Part shown: positions 775 through 25,610 of the stretch, piece after piece
Position numbering within the stretch: the first letter of the stretch is position 1
Layout of the letters: each line of letters begins with the position of its first letter
Source: an uncultured Candidatus Saccharibacteria bacterium
GTDB lineage: Bacteria; Patescibacteriota; Minisyncoccia; Phycocordibacterales; UBA5272
Assembly (NCBI GenBank): GCA_964577625.1
Contig: CAZNZP010000001.1
Coordinates: forward strand, 1-31,234
Direction of reading: 5' to 3'
DNA: 31,234 nucleotides
Notes under the pieces: model-generated
Database searches by the model: none
What the model was told of the DNA's origin: nothing
The model's input: the letters and a program-made list of their open reading frames with translations, nothing else
Program-made: the position numbers and the translations under genes

Positions 775-3285
775 ATGAAAAAAGACAAGAAAAAAGAAAG
801 TTCCACAAAAAATACACATCGTGAAAAAAGGAAAAAGTTATTTACTAGCACTACTTCAGCAATTATCTTTTTCTTATTGGGAGCTATTGCACTCTTTTCC
901 TCTTTTAATGCCGGAGGACAAGTAGGCGCTTCTATTTTTGGAACTCTAGAATTAATTTTGGGCTGGGTGGCCTATATTCTCTTTTTAGGATTCTTTTGGG
1001 TGGGTTATAATTTTTGGAGAGATAAAGAAGATACTCGTCCTGATTTTGTTTCTATTTTAGCTCTTCTTGTGATTCTTTTTTCTTTGACTACTTTTACGGC
1101 TTCTATTGGTCTAGGCAATTCTGGAGTGGTCGGAGAATATTTTTCAGCTTTTCTAAAAGATAACTTTGGAAATATTTTGCCAGCCATTTTGTCTTTTGCT
1201 TTAGGTCTTATAGCTTTTGTAATTCTCTATCAAGACAAACCTTCTCTTAAGTTGCTTAAAAAGAAAAACGAAGAAGCTGAAGAAATAGAAAATTCTCAAA
1301 CTGAAGACACTTCTACTCTATCTTTAGACTATACTCGCACACCTTTGGATACTCCAAAAAAGTCTGCTGGAAAGATTTGGGGGGGAACCTGGAAAGCCAT
1401 ACTCACCTTCTTTAAGAAGATCTTTTCTTTTTTGATTTTTATTTTTTCTTTTAAATGGTTACGAGATATTTTGGCGAAGAAAAAAGCTCAAAAGAAAATT
1501 TTAGAAGACTTGGAAAAGCCAGAATCTGAGATTTATAAAGTTTCTAATCTTCATTTAGAAATGATGAATAATTTTGAAAGTAATAAAGAAGAAACTCCTG
1601 AAGAACATCTAGATATAGAAACTCCTCATTTTGAAAGCGAGCATGCAGAATTACAAAAAGCTAGACAAAAGCCGGATGAAGAAAGAAAACAAAGTATTTT
1701 GGAAGAATCCAAACCTGTCTTTATTGAAGATGAGTTTGAAGCTCCAGATTTAGGGCTTTTAAATCCTGATCAAGGAAAATCCTCAGCTGGAGATTCTAAA
1801 TTTAAAATGAATATTATTCAAAAAGTTTTGAATCAATTTAATATTCCAGTAGAAATGGGAGAAGTGACTGTCGGACCTTCTGTTACTCAATTTACCTTAA
1901 AACCAGCTCAAGGAGTAAATGTGAGGAAAATTTTAGGACTCAAAGATAATCTTCAAATGGCGCTTTCGGCTACTAATATGCATATTGAAGCCCCAATTCC
2001 AGGTAAACCTTTTGTGGGTATTGGTATTCCAAATGAAAAGAAAACTTTGCTCGGACTTCGTAGTCTTTTAGAGCTTGATGAATTTAAGGAAGCTTCACCA
2101 CTAGCTTTAGCAATTGGTAAAAACATTATCGGTAAACCAGTCATTTCCGATCTTTCCAAAATGCCGCACTTGCTGGTAGCTGGTGCGACAGGTACAGGAA
2201 AATCTGTGACTTTGCACAACTTAATCATTTCTTTACTCTATAAAAATTCTCCTTATGATTTGAAATTAATTATTTTAGATCCAAAAAGAGTAGAATTTAC
2301 CGCTTACAACTCTTTGCCTCACCTCTACACTCCTATCATTAAAGATGCGAAAACTGCTATTAAGTCTTTGTCTTGGGCTGCTCAAGAAATGGACAGAAGA
2401 TATGATGTGCTTGGAGAATACGGTATGCCTAATATTACTGAATACAATAAAAAAATATTCTTCCCAGCTTTAGAAAAAGCTAAAAAGAAAAGTAGTGAGG
2501 GAGAATATGTGAAAGGACTTCCTCCAAAAATGCCGTATGTAGTGATAGTCTTTGACGAGTTTAATGACTTTATGCTTACCTATCCAAAAGAAATCACTCC
2601 GGTCATCACTTCTCTTACTCAAAAAGCTCGTGCGGCTGGTATTCATCTTATTTTGACCACTCAAAGACCAGATGTGAAAGTTATCACTGGTACTATCAAA
2701 GCCAATATACCATCTCGTATCGCCCTTAAGACTACTTCTCAAATAGACTCTCGCACCATTCTTGATCAAGCTGGAGCGGAAGATTTGCTTGGAAATGGAG
2801 ATATGCTTTATATGAATGGCTCAACTATCACTCGTGTTCAAGCTCCTTTTGTATCTAGTGAAGAAATCAAAGCCGTCATCACTCATATCAAAAAACGTTA
2901 TGAAGACTTTTTACCTGATATTATTGATGTGCAAAAAGTAAATATTTCTTCGTCTGCTACAAGTGGTTATAGAGAAATGGGAGGAGTAGATGAAAGAGAT
3001 CCTACTCAAGAGCCAATGGATGATGAAGATTATATGAGTGCTAGAGACTATGTGATTTCTACTGGTAAAGCTTCTACTAGTGCACTTCAAACTGCTTTCC
3101 GTTGGGGCTATAACAAATCTGCTCGTATCATTAACGATTTAGAAGCTTATGGTATTATCGGTCCGGCTGTTAGCGGACGCCACCGTGAAGTTTTGTTTGG
3201 AAAACCACAAGAAAGTGAAGTAGAAAAATTAGAAAGAGAATTAGAAGAAATGGAGAGTGATAACGACGAAGATGAAGACGAGTAG
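775..3285 (+). CDS. ftsK: DNA translocase FtsK/SpoIIIE
   Basis: N-terminal TM segments, PHLLVAGATGTGKS Walker A, VIVFDEF Walker B, KARAAGIHLILTTQRP, C-terminal gamma domain (ASTSALQ..FRWGYNKSARII). ORF is open from 739; the ATG at 775 is more likely. Confidence 0.97.
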   Translation: MKKDKKKESSTKNTHREKRKKLFTSTTSAIIFFLLGAIALFSSFNAGGQVGASIFGTLELILGWVAYILFLGFFWVGYNFWRDKEDTRPDFVSILALLVILFSLTTFTASIGLGNSGVVGEYFSAFLKDNFGNILPAILSFALGLIAFVILYQDKPSLKLLKKKNEEAEEIENSQTEDTSTLSLDYTRTPLDTPKKSAGKIWGGTWKAILTFFKKIFSFLIFIFSFKWLRDILAKKKAQKKILEDLEKPESEIYKVSNLHLEMMNNFESNKEETPEEHLDIETPHFESEHAELQKARQKPDEERKQSILEESKPVFIEDEFEAPDLGLLNPDQGKSSAGDSKFKMNIIQKVLNQFNIPVEMGEVTVGPSVTQFTLKPAQGVNVRKILGLKDNLQMALSATNMHIEAPIPGKPFVGIGIPNEKKTLLGLRSLLELDEFKEASPLALAIGKNIIGKPVISDLSKMPHLLVAGATGTGKSVTLHNLIISLLYKNSPYDLKLIILDPKRVEFTAYNSLPHLYTPIIKDAKTAIKSLSWAAQEMDRRYDVLGEYGMPNITEYNKKIFFPALEKAKKKSSEGEYVKGLPPKMPYVVIVFDEFNDFMLTYPKEITPVITSLTQKARAAGIHLILTTQRPDVKVITGTIKANIPSRIALKTTSQIDSRTILDQAGAEDLLGNGDMLYMNGSTITRVQAPFVSSEEIKAVITHIKKRYEDFLPDIIDVQKVNISSSATSGYREMGGVDERDPTQEPMDDEDYMSARDYVISTGKASTSALQTAFRWGYNKSARIINDLEAYGIIGPAVSGRHREVLFGKPQESEVEKLERELEEMESDNDEDEDE

Positions 3286-14413: not shown

Positions 14414-14887
14414 ATGAAGTTAAAAGATGCTAGAAAAAATCACAAAGTGAGATTAATTGTGATAATAGTTTTATTATTGATAGTTGCGTTTCTTTATTTT
14501 AGAGGCGTAAATTGGTCAAATATGACCTCTTGGGAAGGTATTAAGAGTGAACTTGCAGCAAACTATAAACCAGATACCACTGACAAGAAAATTTTAGCTG
14601 GAGCTGGAGCTGTGCTCACTGGAGCTGGTATTTTGGAAGCTACTCAAAACGACTGGGATTTATCTACTGGCCAAAAAGTTTTGAGAGACTTACAAGGTAA
14701 TGTGGTAGATCCAAATTCTCCAGAAGCCGCCAATGCAAAATACACAGATGAATACAACTGTGCTGACTTTAAAACTCAACCAGAAGCTCAAGCTTTCTTT
14801 ATAAAAGCTGGCGGCCCATCTAATGATACAAATAGATTAGACGGAGACAAAGATGGTACAGCATGTGAAGCTTTACCAAAGAATTAA
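14414..14887 (+). CDS. Membrane-anchored Excalibur calcium-binding domain protein
   Basis: N-terminal TM helix; C-terminal [13 protein letters not shown]...[12 protein letters not shown]. Confidence 0.85.
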
Positions 14888-14906
14888 TTAAAAAAATACT
14901 AAATAT

Positions 14907-15173
14907 ATGGATTTAATCATTAGTTTACTTTCAGGTGCTATTGGTGGAAATGCTGTAGGTGCAGCAAACAAAAAACAAAATATGGGTGTGCTTTGGAATA
15001 CTGTCATTGGTCTTATTGGAGGACTTGTTGGATCTGAAGCTTTACAAGCTCTCGTTTCTAATTTAGTCGCCAATACTCTTGGTAATGTAATAGGTTCTGC
15101 AGCTGCTGGTGCTGTTGCTATTTATATAGTAAATTTCATCAAAGATCTTTTAGCTAAAAAGAAAAGTGCTTAA
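14907..15173 (+). CDS. GlsB/YeaQ/YmgE (transglycosylase-associated) family small membrane protein
   Basis: Gly-rich TM helices, GAIGG...MGVLWNTVIGLIGGLVG pattern. Confidence 0.75.
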   Translation: MDLIISLLSGAIGGNAVGAANKKQNMGVLWNTVIGLIGGLVGSEALQALVSNLVANTLGNVIGSAAAGAVAIYIVNFIKDLLAKKKSA

Positions 15174-15187
15174 GATAAAAAATTAAA

Positions 15188-15220
15188 TAATAAAACTCCT
15201 CAATTTGAGGAGTTTTATTA
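15188..15220. terminator. Bidirectional terminator
   Basis: TAATAAAACTCCTC-aattt-GAGGAGTTTTATTA. Confidence 0.85.
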
Positions 15221-15221
15221 T

Positions 15222-15341
15222 TTGTGACCTTACGGGGAATCGGTCACTAAATATATTCGCTACGCTCATTATTTCGCGACCCCGCTTCGTCGTCTCACTC
15301 ACTTCGTTCGTGACTTCGTAGACGACTCAGTTCGATTCCCC
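15222..15341 (-). repeat. tRNA-Glu 3'-end duplication with a palindromic REP-like insert
   Basis: TTGTGACCTTACGGGGAATCG at 15222-15242 is identical to 15396-15416. An inverted T-arm copy GTTCGATTCCCC lies at 15330-15341, and the internal helix GTCGTCT/AGACGAC is present. Confidence 0.75.
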
Positions 15342-15359
15342 TTAATTTCAGATTTTGCA

Positions 15360-15387
15360 AAACACCACTCCTTACAGAGTGGTGTTT
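15360..15387 (-). terminator. Hairpin downstream of tRNA-Glu
   Basis: AAACACCACTC-cttaca-GAGTGGTGTTT. Confidence 0.75.
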
Positions 15388-15398
15388 AAACAAAATTG

Positions 15399-15470
15399 TG
15401 ACCTTACGGGGAATCGAACCCCGATTTCATCCGTGAAAGGGACGTGTCCTAACCGTTAGACGATAAGGCC
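15399..15470 (-). tRNA. tRNA-Glu(UUC), CCA not encoded
   Basis: GGCCTTA/TAAGGTC acceptor, CGTCC-CTTTCAC-GGATG anticodon arm, GGGTTCGATTCCC T-arm. Confidence 0.96.
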
Positions 15471-15564
15471 ATCCAAACTAAAAATCTTTTATAAATAAAA
15501 GTTTTTTAGTTTAGAAAAAAATTATAACACAAAAAACCTTTTTTTCAAAATTCAAAACTTTTTC

Positions 15565-17310
15565 CTATTCTTCATCTACTAGATTTCTCAAGACTTTTTC
15601 AGGAACTTCTTTCATACCTTCCTCTATTTCAATGACTGGAACTTTTACTTCTTTTTCTATAATCAAAGTTTCTTTACGAACTTTTTCTTCTTGCATAGCT
15701 TTAGCCAAAGCATCTTTGAGGGAGGTATTATTAGCACTTAGTTCTTGTTTAGCTTTTTTAGCTTCTTCTCTGACTTTACTAATATTCACATTGTCAATAT
15801 CACTCTCTCGTCTCTTAGAGCGAGTTCTTCCTCCAAATCTTTCATTTCTATTCTCAAAATTTTGTCTCTCAGATTTTTCATTTCTTTCTTGTCTTTCATT
15901 TCTAAAATCTTTTCTAAATTCCCTATTATCTTTATTTTCAAATTTGTTGTCAGAGAAAGCAGGTTTTTCTGAATGTTCTTTTTTAAAAACTGGTGTATAC
16001 CATTCTTCAATTTCTTTTTCTACTTCTTCTTTCTTTTTTCCATATTGATGACGAGAGTATTCTATAATATCTTCTGCATGGGAAGTGTCAGGTTTAGCTA
16101 TTGGTGGAAGTCCACGTGCTGAAAAAGGTTTTGAGCCGACATTGTCTATCATAAGTCGAAGATACATTTGATAAGCAGAAAGATTTACAATATCGTCCGC
16201 TGTAAAGACTGGAGCGAATTCTTTTTCAAAAACTTCTGCATCACCTGCTCCTACTCTAAAGGTCACCATAGTTCCTACATTTCCAAAAATTGCCGCTTTG
16301 ACTTCATCGGTCATTTGTTCAATATATTGATGCCCTACCGCAAGAGCTAATTGATATTTCCTAGCTTCAGACAAAATTTGCGCAAAAGAGTCATTAGCAA
16401 AATTTTGAAATTCATCTACATAAAAATAAAATGGGGGTAATTCATTTAGCTTGTATGGATCAACATCCGCCCGACTCATTGCTGCCAAATAAATTTTTGT
16501 AATCAAAAGTGAGCCGATAAGATTCGCATTCCCTTCCCCCATTTTTCCTTTAGAGAGATTAATAATTAAAATTTTCCTTTCATCCATCACTTCGCGAATA
16601 TCAAAACTTGTTCTCTTTTGTCCAATAATATTTCTAATGAGAGGGTTGGAAGTAAATTGTCCAATTTTATTTTGAATAGCTGGAGCAGCTTCTTGTTGAT
16701 ATTTTTCTCCTGCTTTAGCAAACTCTTCTGTCCAGAAAGATTTGATAGATGGGTCTTGCACGTTGGCTACCATTTTTTTACGATAGTCTTTATCACTCAA
16801 CATACGATTAATACCAATCAAAGTCTCATCATCATTTTCTAGGAGAGCTAGGATAATATTATTCAAAATATTTTGCATTCTATCTGAAAATTTATCTTCT
16901 CCAAAGACTTTTTTGAAAGCTGCCATGAGACCATTAGCTACCAAATGTCTTTTACTAATATCCACTTTTTCAAGCACATTTAAAGCTATTGGATATTCTG
17001 TATCAAAAGGAGCAAAGTAGATTACGTCTTTTTTTCTATGCTCTGGTACGAAATCCAAGAGCTTCTCAGCGCTTCCTCCATGAGGATCCATAAAAGCTAC
17101 CCCTTCCCCATTTTGAATGTCTTGAATCGCCATATTTTCAAGCAAAGTAGACTTTCCCATCCCAGACTTTCCAATCACATACATATGTTTTGTCCTATCT
17201 TTGGCTTTAATGCCAAATTTGACCATCTTATTACGATAGTCAATATTACCCATATAGGTAATTTTATTTGGGTCATTTATGTATTCTTTTTTTTCTACAT
17301 TTTCTGACAT
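15565..17310 (-). CDS. VirD4/TraD-like (HerA/FtsK-fold) ATPase, type IV secretion coupling-protein-like
   Basis: HMYVIGKSGMGKS Walker A, FMDPHG, FYVDEFQNF Walker B, LSEARKYQLALAVGHQYIEQ, GNVGTMVTFRVG. Confidence 0.88.
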   Translation of the reverse strand: MSENVEKKEYINDPNKITYMGNIDYRNKMVKFGIKAKDRTKHMYVIGKSGMGKSTLLENMAIQDIQNGEGVAFMDPHGGSAEKLLDFVPEHRKKDVIYFAPFDTEYPIALNVLEKVDISKRHLVANGLMAAFKKVFGEDKFSDRMQNILNNIILALLENDDETLIGINRMLSDKDYRKKMVANVQDPSIKSFWTEEFAKAGEKYQQEAAPAIQNKIGQFTSNPLIRNIIGQKRTSFDIREVMDERKILIINLSKGKMGEGNANLIGSLLITKIYLAAMSRADVDPYKLNELPPFYFYVDEFQNFANDSFAQILSEARKYQLALAVGHQYIEQMTDEVKAAIFGNVGTMVTFRVGAGDAEVFEKEFAPVFTADDIVNLSAYQMYLRLMIDNVGSKPFSARGLPPIAKPDTSHAEDIIEYSRHQYGKKKEEVEKEIEEWYTPVFKKEHSEKPAFSDNKFENKDNREFRKDFRNERQERNEKSERQNFENRNERFGGRTRSKRRESDIDNVNISKVREEAKKAKQELSANNTSLKDALAKAMQEEKVRKETLIIEKEVKVPVIEIEEGMKEVPEKVLRNLVDEE

Positions 17311-24962: not shown

Positions 24963-25219
24963 AAATTTGTTTAATTAATAAAAACTGAATAATAAATAAT
25001 AATCTTATTTGATGTCTCAATATCAAATAAATCACACAATCAATAGTTAGTAAAACTAATAACAAATATATAGATCTCAAATAAAAAATGCTATATATGA
25101 CCCGATTATATCATTTAAGGGATGGAATGCAACTAAAAAAGACTTGTCGTCAATAGGAGTTTTGGGGTGGCTTTTTGTGTGGTAAATAGGATTTATCCAC
25201 CACAAATATATTTTTTCTG

Positions 25220-25293
25220 CGCAGTGAATGGGATTCGAACCCACGACCCCCGCCGTGACAGGGCGGTGCTCTAACCAGCTGAGCTACCACTGC
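25220..25293 (-). tRNA. tRNA-Asp(GUC), CCA not encoded
   Basis: GCAGTGG/TCACTGC acceptor, CCGCC-CTGTCAC-GGCGG, GGGTTCGAATCCC. Confidence 0.96.
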
Positions 25294-25417
25294 ATACTAT
25301 CTAACAAATAATAATTATTCATTAGACAGTTCAAATATTTTAACATATTTAATTTTGGTTTGCAAAATCTAAATTAAAGTGATATTATTTTACATACCTA
25401 TAAAATATATAGAATAT

Positions 25418-25488
25418 TGCGGAATGGAGTAAAGGTAACTCGCAAGGCTCATAACCTTGAAACCCAGGTTCGAATCCCGGTTCCGCTA
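25418..25488 (+). tRNA. tRNA-Met(CAU), probably initiator fMet
   Basis: Unpaired 1:72 (T:T), CAAGG-CTCATAA-CCTTG anticodon arm, GGTTCGAATCC. Confidence 0.85.
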
Positions 25489-25500
25489 CAAGAATTAAAT

Positions 25501-25528
25501 AAAAAACTCCAGAAAGTTGGAGTTTTTT
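25501..25528. terminator. Bidirectional terminator between convergent tRNAs
   Basis: AAAAAACTCCA-gaaagt-TGGAGTTTTTT. Confidence 0.8.
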
Positions 25529-25533
25529 ATTTT

Positions 25534-25610
25534 TGGTGTCAGTAGGTGGAATTGAACCACCGACCTTGGCTTTATGAGTGCCACGCTCTAACCAACTGAG
25601 CTATACTGAC
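25534..25610 (-). tRNA. tRNA with CAU anticodon (elongator Met or Ile2), CCA encoded
   Basis: GTCAGTA/TACTGAC acceptor plus ACCA, AGCTCAGTTGGTTAGAGC D-arm, CTCATAA loop, GGTTCAATTCC. Met versus Ile2 cannot be decided by eye. Confidence 0.9.

Follow-up and report, generated by a model that had tools for sequence, protein, structure and literature searches.

A family of small non-coding repeats sits behind tRNA and tmRNA genes in Candidatus Saccharibacteria, and each copy is built in part from the very gene that it follows. A copy is composed, in order, of a trailer with a hairpin, an antisense stretch of the local tRNA (positions ~72 to 53), a core of ~90 nt and a direct copy of the local tRNA starting at C56. 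By this anatomy, the tail of the tRNA is present three times, i.e., direct, inverted and direct, and the gene itself is intact; the core occupies the T-loop of the folded-back spare copy. The copy described here spans positions 15222–15416 of the window, by which we mean the whole stretch of 31,234 nucleotides that was analyzed. With somewhat more belief than doubt, we regard this segment as a 174-bp copy of a selfish, protein-less family that is linked to tRNA and tmRNA genes, is co-transcribed with them and resembles the RtT repeats of Escherichia coli, its arms being copied from the target, perhaps by template switching. No description of the element in Saccharibacteria or Patescibacteria was found in the literature.

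Organization of the tRNA-Glu Locus

The locus extends over positions 15185–15548 of the window and is read on the reverse strand. The tRNA-Glu(UUC) gene (15398–15470, reverse strand), identified by ARAGORN and by the Rfam tRNA model (60.8 bits), is intact and encodes no CCA. It is preceded by a sigma-70-like promoter (15521–15548, reverse strand) composed of TTGAAA, a 16-nt spacer and TG-TATAAT, with 11 of 12 hexamer matches and an extended −10, which is the likely start of a transcript through the element. The first-pass annotation of this DNA had reported that the 21-bp end of the tRNA is duplicated 174 bp away. Indeed, the segment from C56 to A73 followed by CAA (TTGTGACCTTACGGGGAATCG; 15396–15416, reverse strand) recurs with 100% identity at 15222–15242 (reverse strand), at a spacing of 174 nt. 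The downstream copy, delimited by repeat search, begins exactly at C56 and constitutes the 3′ arm of the arm helix P0.

Three segments on the reverse strand separate the two direct copies. Closest to the gene is a perfect 11-bp hairpin (15360–15387), found by inverted-repeat search, which has a weak terminator tail (TTTTG) and is the centre of the fold-back. It is followed by an inverted copy of tRNA-Glu positions 53–73 plus the first trailer bases (15330–15356), complementary to the tRNA at 18 of 21 positions, which constitutes the 5′ arm of P0. The inverted T-arm copy previously placed at 15330–15341 is thus part of a longer pair of arms (15330–15356 and 15393–15419) of 27 nt and 81% complementarity, by which the 3′ end of the tRNA and its trailer pair with the inverted copy around the hairpin 15360–15387. 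A second inverted pair in the window joins 15209–15242 to 15333–15366. The third segment is the conserved structured core (15243–15329), defined by its recurrence, by covariation and by the covariance model R1, with which the window copy scores 107 bits. The first reading had also drawn attention to ~90 bp of GC-rich hairpins studded with TTCG and CGAA. The segment 15243–15333 does have a G+C content of 48%, against 33% for the whole window and 20–26% for the flanks, and holds four mini-hairpin motifs of the form R-C-G-N-A-G-Y, which are the TTCG/CGAA words read on the opposite strand.

The locus ends at a strong bidirectional terminator (15185–15223, both strands) with an 18-pair stem and a T run, recognized by terminator scoring and as an inverted-repeat pair, which is common to a convergent 88-aa ORF and to the tRNA-element transcript. 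The two hairpins that had been described as terminators boxing the unit both exist; this one is a strong terminator, whereas the hairpin at 15360–15387 has the weaker T tail and was not scored as a terminator. Because of this layout of promoter and terminator, and because of the E. coli precedent described below, the element is likely to be co-transcribed with the tRNA, from the promoter 15548–15521 to the terminator 15223–15185.

Two further features of the window were observed. Directly upstream of the tRNA-Glu gene, a 581-aa ORF (15565–17310, reverse strand) matches the ATPase domains of TrwB/TraG-type coupling proteins of type IV secretion. Farther away (25219–25610), a tRNA-Asp gene is found with two tRNA-Met genes, which converge on one shared bidirectional terminator; the CCA is encoded in one of the two and absent from the other.

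The Arms Are Copied from Each Local tRNA

At every site in G000, the genome to which the window belongs, the core is preceded by an imperfect reverse complement of positions 53–72 of the local tRNA and followed by a copy of that same tRNA beginning exactly at C56. In relatives, too, each copy has arms that match the tRNA beside it. The inverted arm of the window copy mirrors, in addition, the trailer, which is known at the tRNA-Glu locus alone: no second locus carrying this trailer and its hairpin (15360–15387) was found across the genus. In genome G010, near-identical cores are found at the genes for Ser-TGA, Ser-GGA and Leu-GAG, and in each of them the local antisense arm is flanked by element-borne segments. 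The arms are, in short, templated from the target.

The two kinds of arm differ in fidelity. The antisense arm is far more diverged (3–7 mismatches in 21) than the direct copy (0–2 in 21), in young copies included, and the arm helix P0 contains many uncompensated mismatches. The direct duplication ranges from 21 nt in the window to >55 nt elsewhere, and in loci L060 and L061, as at E. coli proK, it extends through the terminator.

The Core Is a Covarying Structure on the tRNA-Sense Strand

The core folds into three helices, P1, P2 and P3, with a 2-bp mini-hairpin of the form R-C-GAA-G-Y between P1 and P2, and with tandem G·A pairs. In the window, all on the reverse strand and all supported by covariation, P1 pairs 15320–15326 with 15289–15295, the mini-hairpin ACGAAGT occupies 15313–15319, P2 pairs 15306–15312 with 15296–15302, and P3 pairs 15264–15281 with 15242–15260; the junction GAAGCGGGG also lies within 15243–15329 on this strand. 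In one covariation test over the aligned copies, 96.3% of the cells are paired, compared to 80.4% in shuffles and 29–42% in slid-partner controls, and 17 of 27 pairs change on both sides. Taken with a further test, the ranges are 96–97% of cells paired, 28–42% in slid controls and 17–18 pairs that change on both sides, and none of 500 shuffles reached the observed values. The closing pair of the mini-hairpin itself covaries, being G-C in 12 copies and A-U in nine. The strand can be told from the G·U pairs that are valid on the tRNA-sense strand alone, of which there are 28, one of them invariant, versus four A·C pairs. Folding as RNA is also stronger for the sense strand (−45.3 kcal/mol, z −5.2) than for the antisense strand (−35.7 kcal/mol, z −3.7).

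Several small motifs are shared between the parts of the element. Tandem G·A pairs with an adjacent C-G pair recur in P2 of one subtype, at the P3 tip and where the arm helix ends on its inner side; in the arm, this motif arises where GGATGAGAAC replaces GGATTCGAAC. Most copies have a trailer hairpin built from the very module, AAATAATGAG-hairpin-GAATATATTT, that makes up the interior of P3. The unpaired motifs CGGGGUCGCG, GUGACC and RCGAAGY are conserved across the order. Together, the conserved fold and the unpaired motifs suggest that the core is recognized by a protein or works as RNA, neither of which a purely passive DNA parasite would need.

Some rearranged forms were encountered. Behind tRNA-Gly(UCC) in genome G013 (contig C25, 1160–1295), a deletion derivative has its gene fused to the tip of P3 via AAATAATGAG, a sequence that the trailer and P3 have in common; the fusion shows that recombination between the two modules can occur. 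P3-like hairpins (AAAYAAKGAGC..GCGACTATRTTT) also occur distant from any tRNA, in genomes G146 (contig C6, 1501–1598) and G162 (contig C1, 1501–1575). Their outer stems are swapped and still complementary (GTCAATG/CATTGAC and TGACACA/TGTGTCA), so the inner module of P3 may be a separate unit.

Three other identities of the core were considered and rejected. A scan of window positions 14800–15800 against Rfam (E ≤ 10) matched the tRNA alone. In a by-eye comparison of junctions with the hammerhead ribozyme, CUGA and GAA are present, G8 and A9 are missing, and CUGAG is unconserved in distant copies. A short ORF in P3 has a Shine-Dalgarno-like AAGGAG; its ATG is made by a covarying pair, and the frame beyond it consists of locus-specific tRNA sequence.

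Recurrence and Distribution

The first-pass annotation had proposed a non-autonomous mini-element tied to tRNA genes, and had pointed to recurrence of the core beside other tRNAs, with arms matching each of them, as the way to check it. Such recurrence was found. The core is present in seven copies in G000, a genome of 518 kb in 48 contigs with 33% G+C, of which the window is contig C1. The six copies outside the window follow Lys-UUU, Val-GAC, Arg-UCG, Gly-UCC, Arg-CCU and a tRNA truncated by a contig end, and all seven cores lie ~55–65 nt behind the tRNA in the same orientation. When the 35 tRNA genes of G000 were compared, downstream copies of the tRNA end, both direct (0–2 mismatches in 18) and inverted (3–7 in 18), were found only where the core is present; genes without a core have 7–10 mismatches in 18 to their own end downstream, so that the match is well beyond a chance level. 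The exceptions are Gly-gcc on contig C27, which scores on an adjacent tRNA gene, and Ile-tat on contig C4, which has a direct copy alone.

The latter case deserves its own description. The tRNA-Ile(UAU) gene of contig C4 (complement of 348–423, within ~280–423) has its last ~30 nt, including the whole T-arm, repeated exactly 62 nt downstream, and neither an inverted copy nor a core accompanies the repeat. The tRNA is here partly duplicated in another manner than at the element; the repeat could be a genuine att-type scar or a deletion derivative. Two other contigs stop inside or beside copies of the element (the end of C30, 6912–7094, and the end of C44, 3008–3132), as is expected where a repeat breaks the assembly.

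With model R1, built from 21 copies, 0–19 copies per genome were counted in the genus, with seven of 15 genomes positive; among the eight genomes without an R1 copy, one is closed. In five relatives, 27 of 28 R1 matches lie behind a tRNA or tmRNA gene, at a distance of 15–91 nt (mostly 54–61), to which some add the length of one tandem unit. Weak R1 matches were obtained in many other families of the order, and most of them show the same anatomy on inspection. Altogether, the same core is found at over 20 different tRNA and tmRNA genes. The element is carried by independent assemblies across the order, which disposes of the concern that the structure in the window could be a local misassembly.

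Signs of Mobility

Filled and empty sites can be compared directly. Genome G005 has an empty site at the tRNA-Glu locus: both flanks are syntenic, and in place of the two tRNA ends that are spaced by 174 nt in the window there is a single one. The window copies at 15222–15242 and 15396–15416 both map to that one end (locus L021, 1501–1521), and the terminator 15185–15223 has the position of the terminator in the empty site. The downstream copy (15222–15242) is therefore probably the original chromosomal end of the tRNA-Glu gene.

The distribution of cores is also that of a mobile repeat. In a tree of cores, copies cluster by genome subfamily and not by tRNA, to the point that the Arg-TCG copies of three genomes fall into three clades. 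The set of tRNAs that bear the element differs among close relatives, and tandem arrays, partial units, deletion derivatives and decayed arms are common. By these sequence comparisons, i.e., filled and empty sites between genomes, variable copy number and paralogues closer to each other than orthologues, the element would act as a mobile or selfish repeat. The bursts of near-identical cores within a genome suggest an efficient, possibly enzymatic process. One array has a composition of its own: behind a full element at tRNA-Leu(UAA) in genome G012 (contig C10, 1377–1600), two or three tandem units of 117 nt are composed of P3, the spare tRNA end and flank, and nothing else.

Searches for an Enzyme and for a Parent Element

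The enzyme searches covered a limited set of families (PF00078, PF07282, PF01797, PF01548, PF03432, PF00239 and PF00589), and the genome of the window is ~95% complete in its 48 contigs. No match to reverse transcriptase (PF00078), TnpB (PF07282), Y1 transposase (PF01797) or IS110 transposase (PF01548) was found in G000, G010, G012 or G013; the Y1 and TnpB searches, which covered four to five element-carrying genomes, gave no match. Relaxases (PF03432) were found in none of 41 related genomes. Serine recombinases (PF00239) are absent from G000; they are present in many genomes and uncorrelated with the element. Each genome tested has one Xer-like tyrosine recombinase (PF00589), which in G000 is on another contig than the window. 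It is present with or without the element and is housekeeping-like. Of the RAYT/IS200-like transposase and the tyrosine recombinase that the first reading had advised looking for, no Y1/RAYT enzyme was found, and one Xer-like recombinase is present.

No larger relative of the element came to light. The exact core motif is absent from viral contigs. A looser pattern gives at least 120 matches there, mostly by chance; among the 80 listed, one is real and two are false positives in coding sequence. BLAST against phage and plasmid collections gave no match. The one real match is a GC-rich true member of the family (IMGVR_UViG_3300033463_005745, 3077–3177) on a 34.7-kb contig classed as viral, with no tRNA detected in the 3.3 kb examined. 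Two further possibilities were considered and rejected. A cut between T55 and C56 by a restriction enzyme of the TaqI/BstBI type (T^CGA) was rejected because tRNAs with a TTCAA loop (Leu, Cys and tmRNA) also carry the element. By eye, no dif-like motif was seen in the conserved AAATAATGAG...GAATATATTT module.

Comparison with the RtT Repeats of Escherichia coli

RtT repeats have been known since 1978, to our knowledge solely as an unexplained E. coli curiosity. The RF00391 model identifies 16 repeats in E. coli K-12, each of them within a tRNA operon (tyrT/V, proK, lysT-valT, lysV, serX and argQ). In the copies inspected, the order is tRNA, trailer, antisense local T-arm, core, direct tRNA copy from A58–T60 to CCA, and trailer again. 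At proK, lysV and serX, the trailer has a terminator hairpin; where present, this terminator is repeated after the spare copy. The core is GC-rich, with the mini-hairpins CCGAAGG, GCGAAGC and GCGCAGC and the motif GAGCGAAGCGAG. The annotated RttR RNA (rttR/tpr, tyrT-tyrV operon) begins 7 nt past tyrV and stops precisely on the CCA of the spare copy.

The E. coli repeat and the Saccharibacteria element have much in common. Both lie behind a tRNA on the same strand and end in a direct copy of its 3′ end; both have an antisense local T-arm on the 5′ side and, between the arms, a GC-rich core of C-GNA-G hairpins; both form tandem arrays, with a unit of 178 nt in E. coli and 174 nt in the window; and they share the antisense variant GGATGAGAA(C/G) and the motif GAGCGAAGCGA. 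However, the helices of the two cores cannot be confidently aligned. The inverted arm of the E. coli repeat is the T-arm alone and its direct repeat takes in the terminator, whereas the Saccharibacteria fold-back reaches through the acceptor strand and the trailer. RF00391 has no match in window positions 14800–15800 (E ≤ 10) nor at five Saccharibacteria loci (E ≤ 1), while four E. coli units score 133–138 bits with it (gathering score, 45 bits). Conversely, R1 does not detect the E. coli repeats (7.5 bits). As neither covariance model detects the other family, the window element is treated as working like RtT and not as a member of RF00391.

Two observations concern the E. coli copies. The antisense arms at tyrV (NC_000913.3, 1285800–1287600), proK and serX (loci L230, L235 and L242) carry a TC-to-GA change (GGATGAGAA), which is also found in several Saccharibacteria copies and which, opposite A58-G57, would yield tandem G·A pairs. 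A mobilome-sequencing preprint reports that the rttR-tyrT region is enriched in exonuclease-resistant DNA under stress, and calls its mode of action unknown (10.1101/2024.07.17.603846).

It is possible, though we lean towards doubt, that RtT-type repeats form a single class across phyla, in which protein-less elements spread among tRNA genes by copying the tail of the target forwards and backwards around a folded core, and whose transcription would yield RNAs that have a programmable, tRNA-like acceptor end. If true, this would be a mode of insertion for which we know of no described counterpart.

How New Copies May Arise

The least certain part of this account is that new copies would arise without any enzyme encoded by the element, through template switching (copy choice) during replication; we infer this from the layout of the arms and consider it doubtful rather than probable. 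Inverted triplications are known to result when replication switches its template at short inverted repeats (PMC4689423, PMC7202029). The direct-inverted-direct order of the tRNA tail is the signature of such a process, in which the repeats would here be the terminator hairpin and the T-arm. In the proposed sequence of events, a nascent strand that has passed the 3′ end of the tRNA gene would depart from it and copy a donor element. It would snap back on the trailer or terminator hairpin and copy the local tRNA tail in reverse, re-align on the T-loop complement TCGAAC and copy the core, and finally go back to the local T-loop CGAWTCC and copy the tail again. All the putative switch points are sequences common to tRNA genes: the A-rich stretch where the trailer begins, the palindromic trailer itself, TCGAAC and CGAWTCC. 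The mini-hairpins could stall the polymerase. The variable length of the direct repeat, and junctions placed in the T-loop sequence shared by all tRNA genes, point the same way. What stands against template switching is that three or four switches are needed per event, or else rapid stepwise correction, and that ~60 copies included no intermediate with foreign arms; the bursts of near-identical cores, the conserved fold and unpaired motifs, and the greater divergence of the antisense arm also weigh against our reading. Once transcribed, the element would adopt a three-way junction, closed by a stem that mimics the acceptor and T stem of the tRNA.

An alternative, which we think unlikely but grounded in several of the features above, is that the element is a functional RtT-like small RNA of the tRNA operon, of ~130–170 nt and processed from the tRNA transcript, with a role in tRNA processing or stability or in mimicry of (uncharged) tRNA. 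Its closing stem and 3′ tail would then copy the acceptor end of the neighbouring tRNA, its spread would be secondary, and identical cores would result from gene conversion. Such an RNA would account for the structure on the tRNA-sense strand with its invariant G·U pair, for the promoter before the tRNA and the sole strong terminator after the copy, for unpaired motifs kept across the order, and for the annotated E. coli RttR, whose 3′ end falls precisely on the CCA of the spare copy. It fits poorly with a family that is missing from eight of the 15 genomes of the genus, the closed one included, that varies from 0 to 19 copies and occupies different tRNAs in close relatives, and whose copies decay, delete and amplify in tandem. 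Nor would it lead one to expect the many uncompensated mismatches in P0, or Arg-TCG cores of different subfamilies in three genomes. The element might instead move as single-stranded DNA and be served in trans by an unrecognised enzyme. Candidates for this enzyme are the single Xer-like recombinase, which would act on the folded hairpin in the manner known for CTX-phi, a primase, and a nuclease, either of a novel HUH type or of another kind. Its substrate would be the tRNA-sense strand in its single-stranded state, as occurs at replication forks, within R-loops or following DNA uptake. GCGNAGC-type hairpins are extraordinarily stable as DNA, bind SSB poorly and are found at the G4 origin, ssiA and N4 promoters (reviewed in PMC13037366); the core is packed with mini-hairpins of this type, known from single-strand initiation sites (PMC13037366), and their closing pair covaries. 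Moreover, when folded as a single strand, P0 would restore the target as a duplex; the finding of identical cores behind different tRNAs speaks for an efficient process, and every genome tested has one tyrosine recombinase. Yet that recombinase is independent of the element and looks like a housekeeping Xer, neither an HUH/Y1 transposase nor a relaxase was found in the genomes searched, and the phage and plasmid collections hold no copy, with one real copy among the listed viral-contig matches. A site-specific recombinase would explain neither the re-templated arms nor direct repeats of variable length. We judge this explanation quite improbable.

The first reading had itself considered a simple integration scar and an analogy to REP/BIME hairpins and their RAYT transposases. 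In these terms, the segment would be a cargo-less attL/attR scar left by a tyrosine integrase of a phage or island in the T-loop of tRNA-Glu, or else a miniature element derived from REP/RAYT or IS200/IS605. One class of elements that integrate at tRNA genes typically has direct repeats starting in the T-loop, and small hairpin-rich repeats are typical of REP and PATE elements; the segment has both. However, integrases leave no inverted copy of the target, and the same core occurs at more than 20 tRNA/tmRNA genes with arms that are always local, so a scar is contradicted. An att scar would be recognized by an associated integrase and a repeat carried by the element: the Xer-like recombinase lies on another contig, no second integrase was found in G000, and the repeats always belong to the locus. 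The REP analogy also fails. No Y1/RAYT or TnpB gene was matched in the genomes searched, nothing like REP doublets is seen, and the arms, in place of element-borne inverted repeats or hairpin ends, differ at every locus. No cargo-bearing relative was found among viral contigs or in the phage and plasmid collections. We regard both forms of this explanation as close to refuted. The reading that we retain is that of a selfish, protein-less, RtT-like family whose arms are copied from each target, perhaps by template switching.

Relation to Other Systems and Significance

The element shares features with several known systems, and each comparison also marks a difference. Islands, prophages and integrase-less remnants (tycheposons, CIMEs) that integrate at tRNA genes likewise target a tRNA or tmRNA, start their direct repeat in the T-loop and leave the gene intact. 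Here, however, there is no integrase or cargo, the repeat is always local, an extra inverted copy is present, and one core is found at many tRNAs. MITEs, REP/REPIN-RAYT systems and IS200/IS605 PATEs are also small, non-coding, hairpin-forming and multicopy, with strand-specific structure and a patchy distribution; the Saccharibacteria element differs from them by its target-copied arms, its long and variable target duplication, its strict association with the T-loop and the lack of any cognate transposase among the families searched. Triplications formed by template switching (ODIRA, PMC4689423, PMC10766183; tandem inversion duplications; quasipalindrome correction, PMC7202029) have the same direct-inverted-direct order and junctions at short hairpin repeats, but they are sporadic and do not recur as a family, and their second junction holds no conserved core. 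CTX-phi and the other elements that exploit Xer (IMEX) provide a precedent for a folded single strand that mimics a chromosomal target duplex with no need for an element-encoded recombinase, yet their target is dif and not a tRNA, their dif-like arms are fixed, and no dif-like motif is seen in the Saccharibacteria element.

We know of no described transposon, integrase or MITE that copies its arms from each target. An insertion into a single-copy tRNA gene should be lethal, and it has been survived because the tail of the gene is duplicated. Up to 19 copies of the element are found even in small genomes with almost no mobile DNA. The link to RtT would provide a comparative data set for a 45-year-old unexplained feature of E. 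coli and, in return, a genetically tractable model for the elements of Saccharibacteria. If template switching holds true, this would be a selfish element that needs the replication fork alone; if it is the RNA that matters, it would be a small-RNA family in which each member mimics the acceptor end of a different tRNA.
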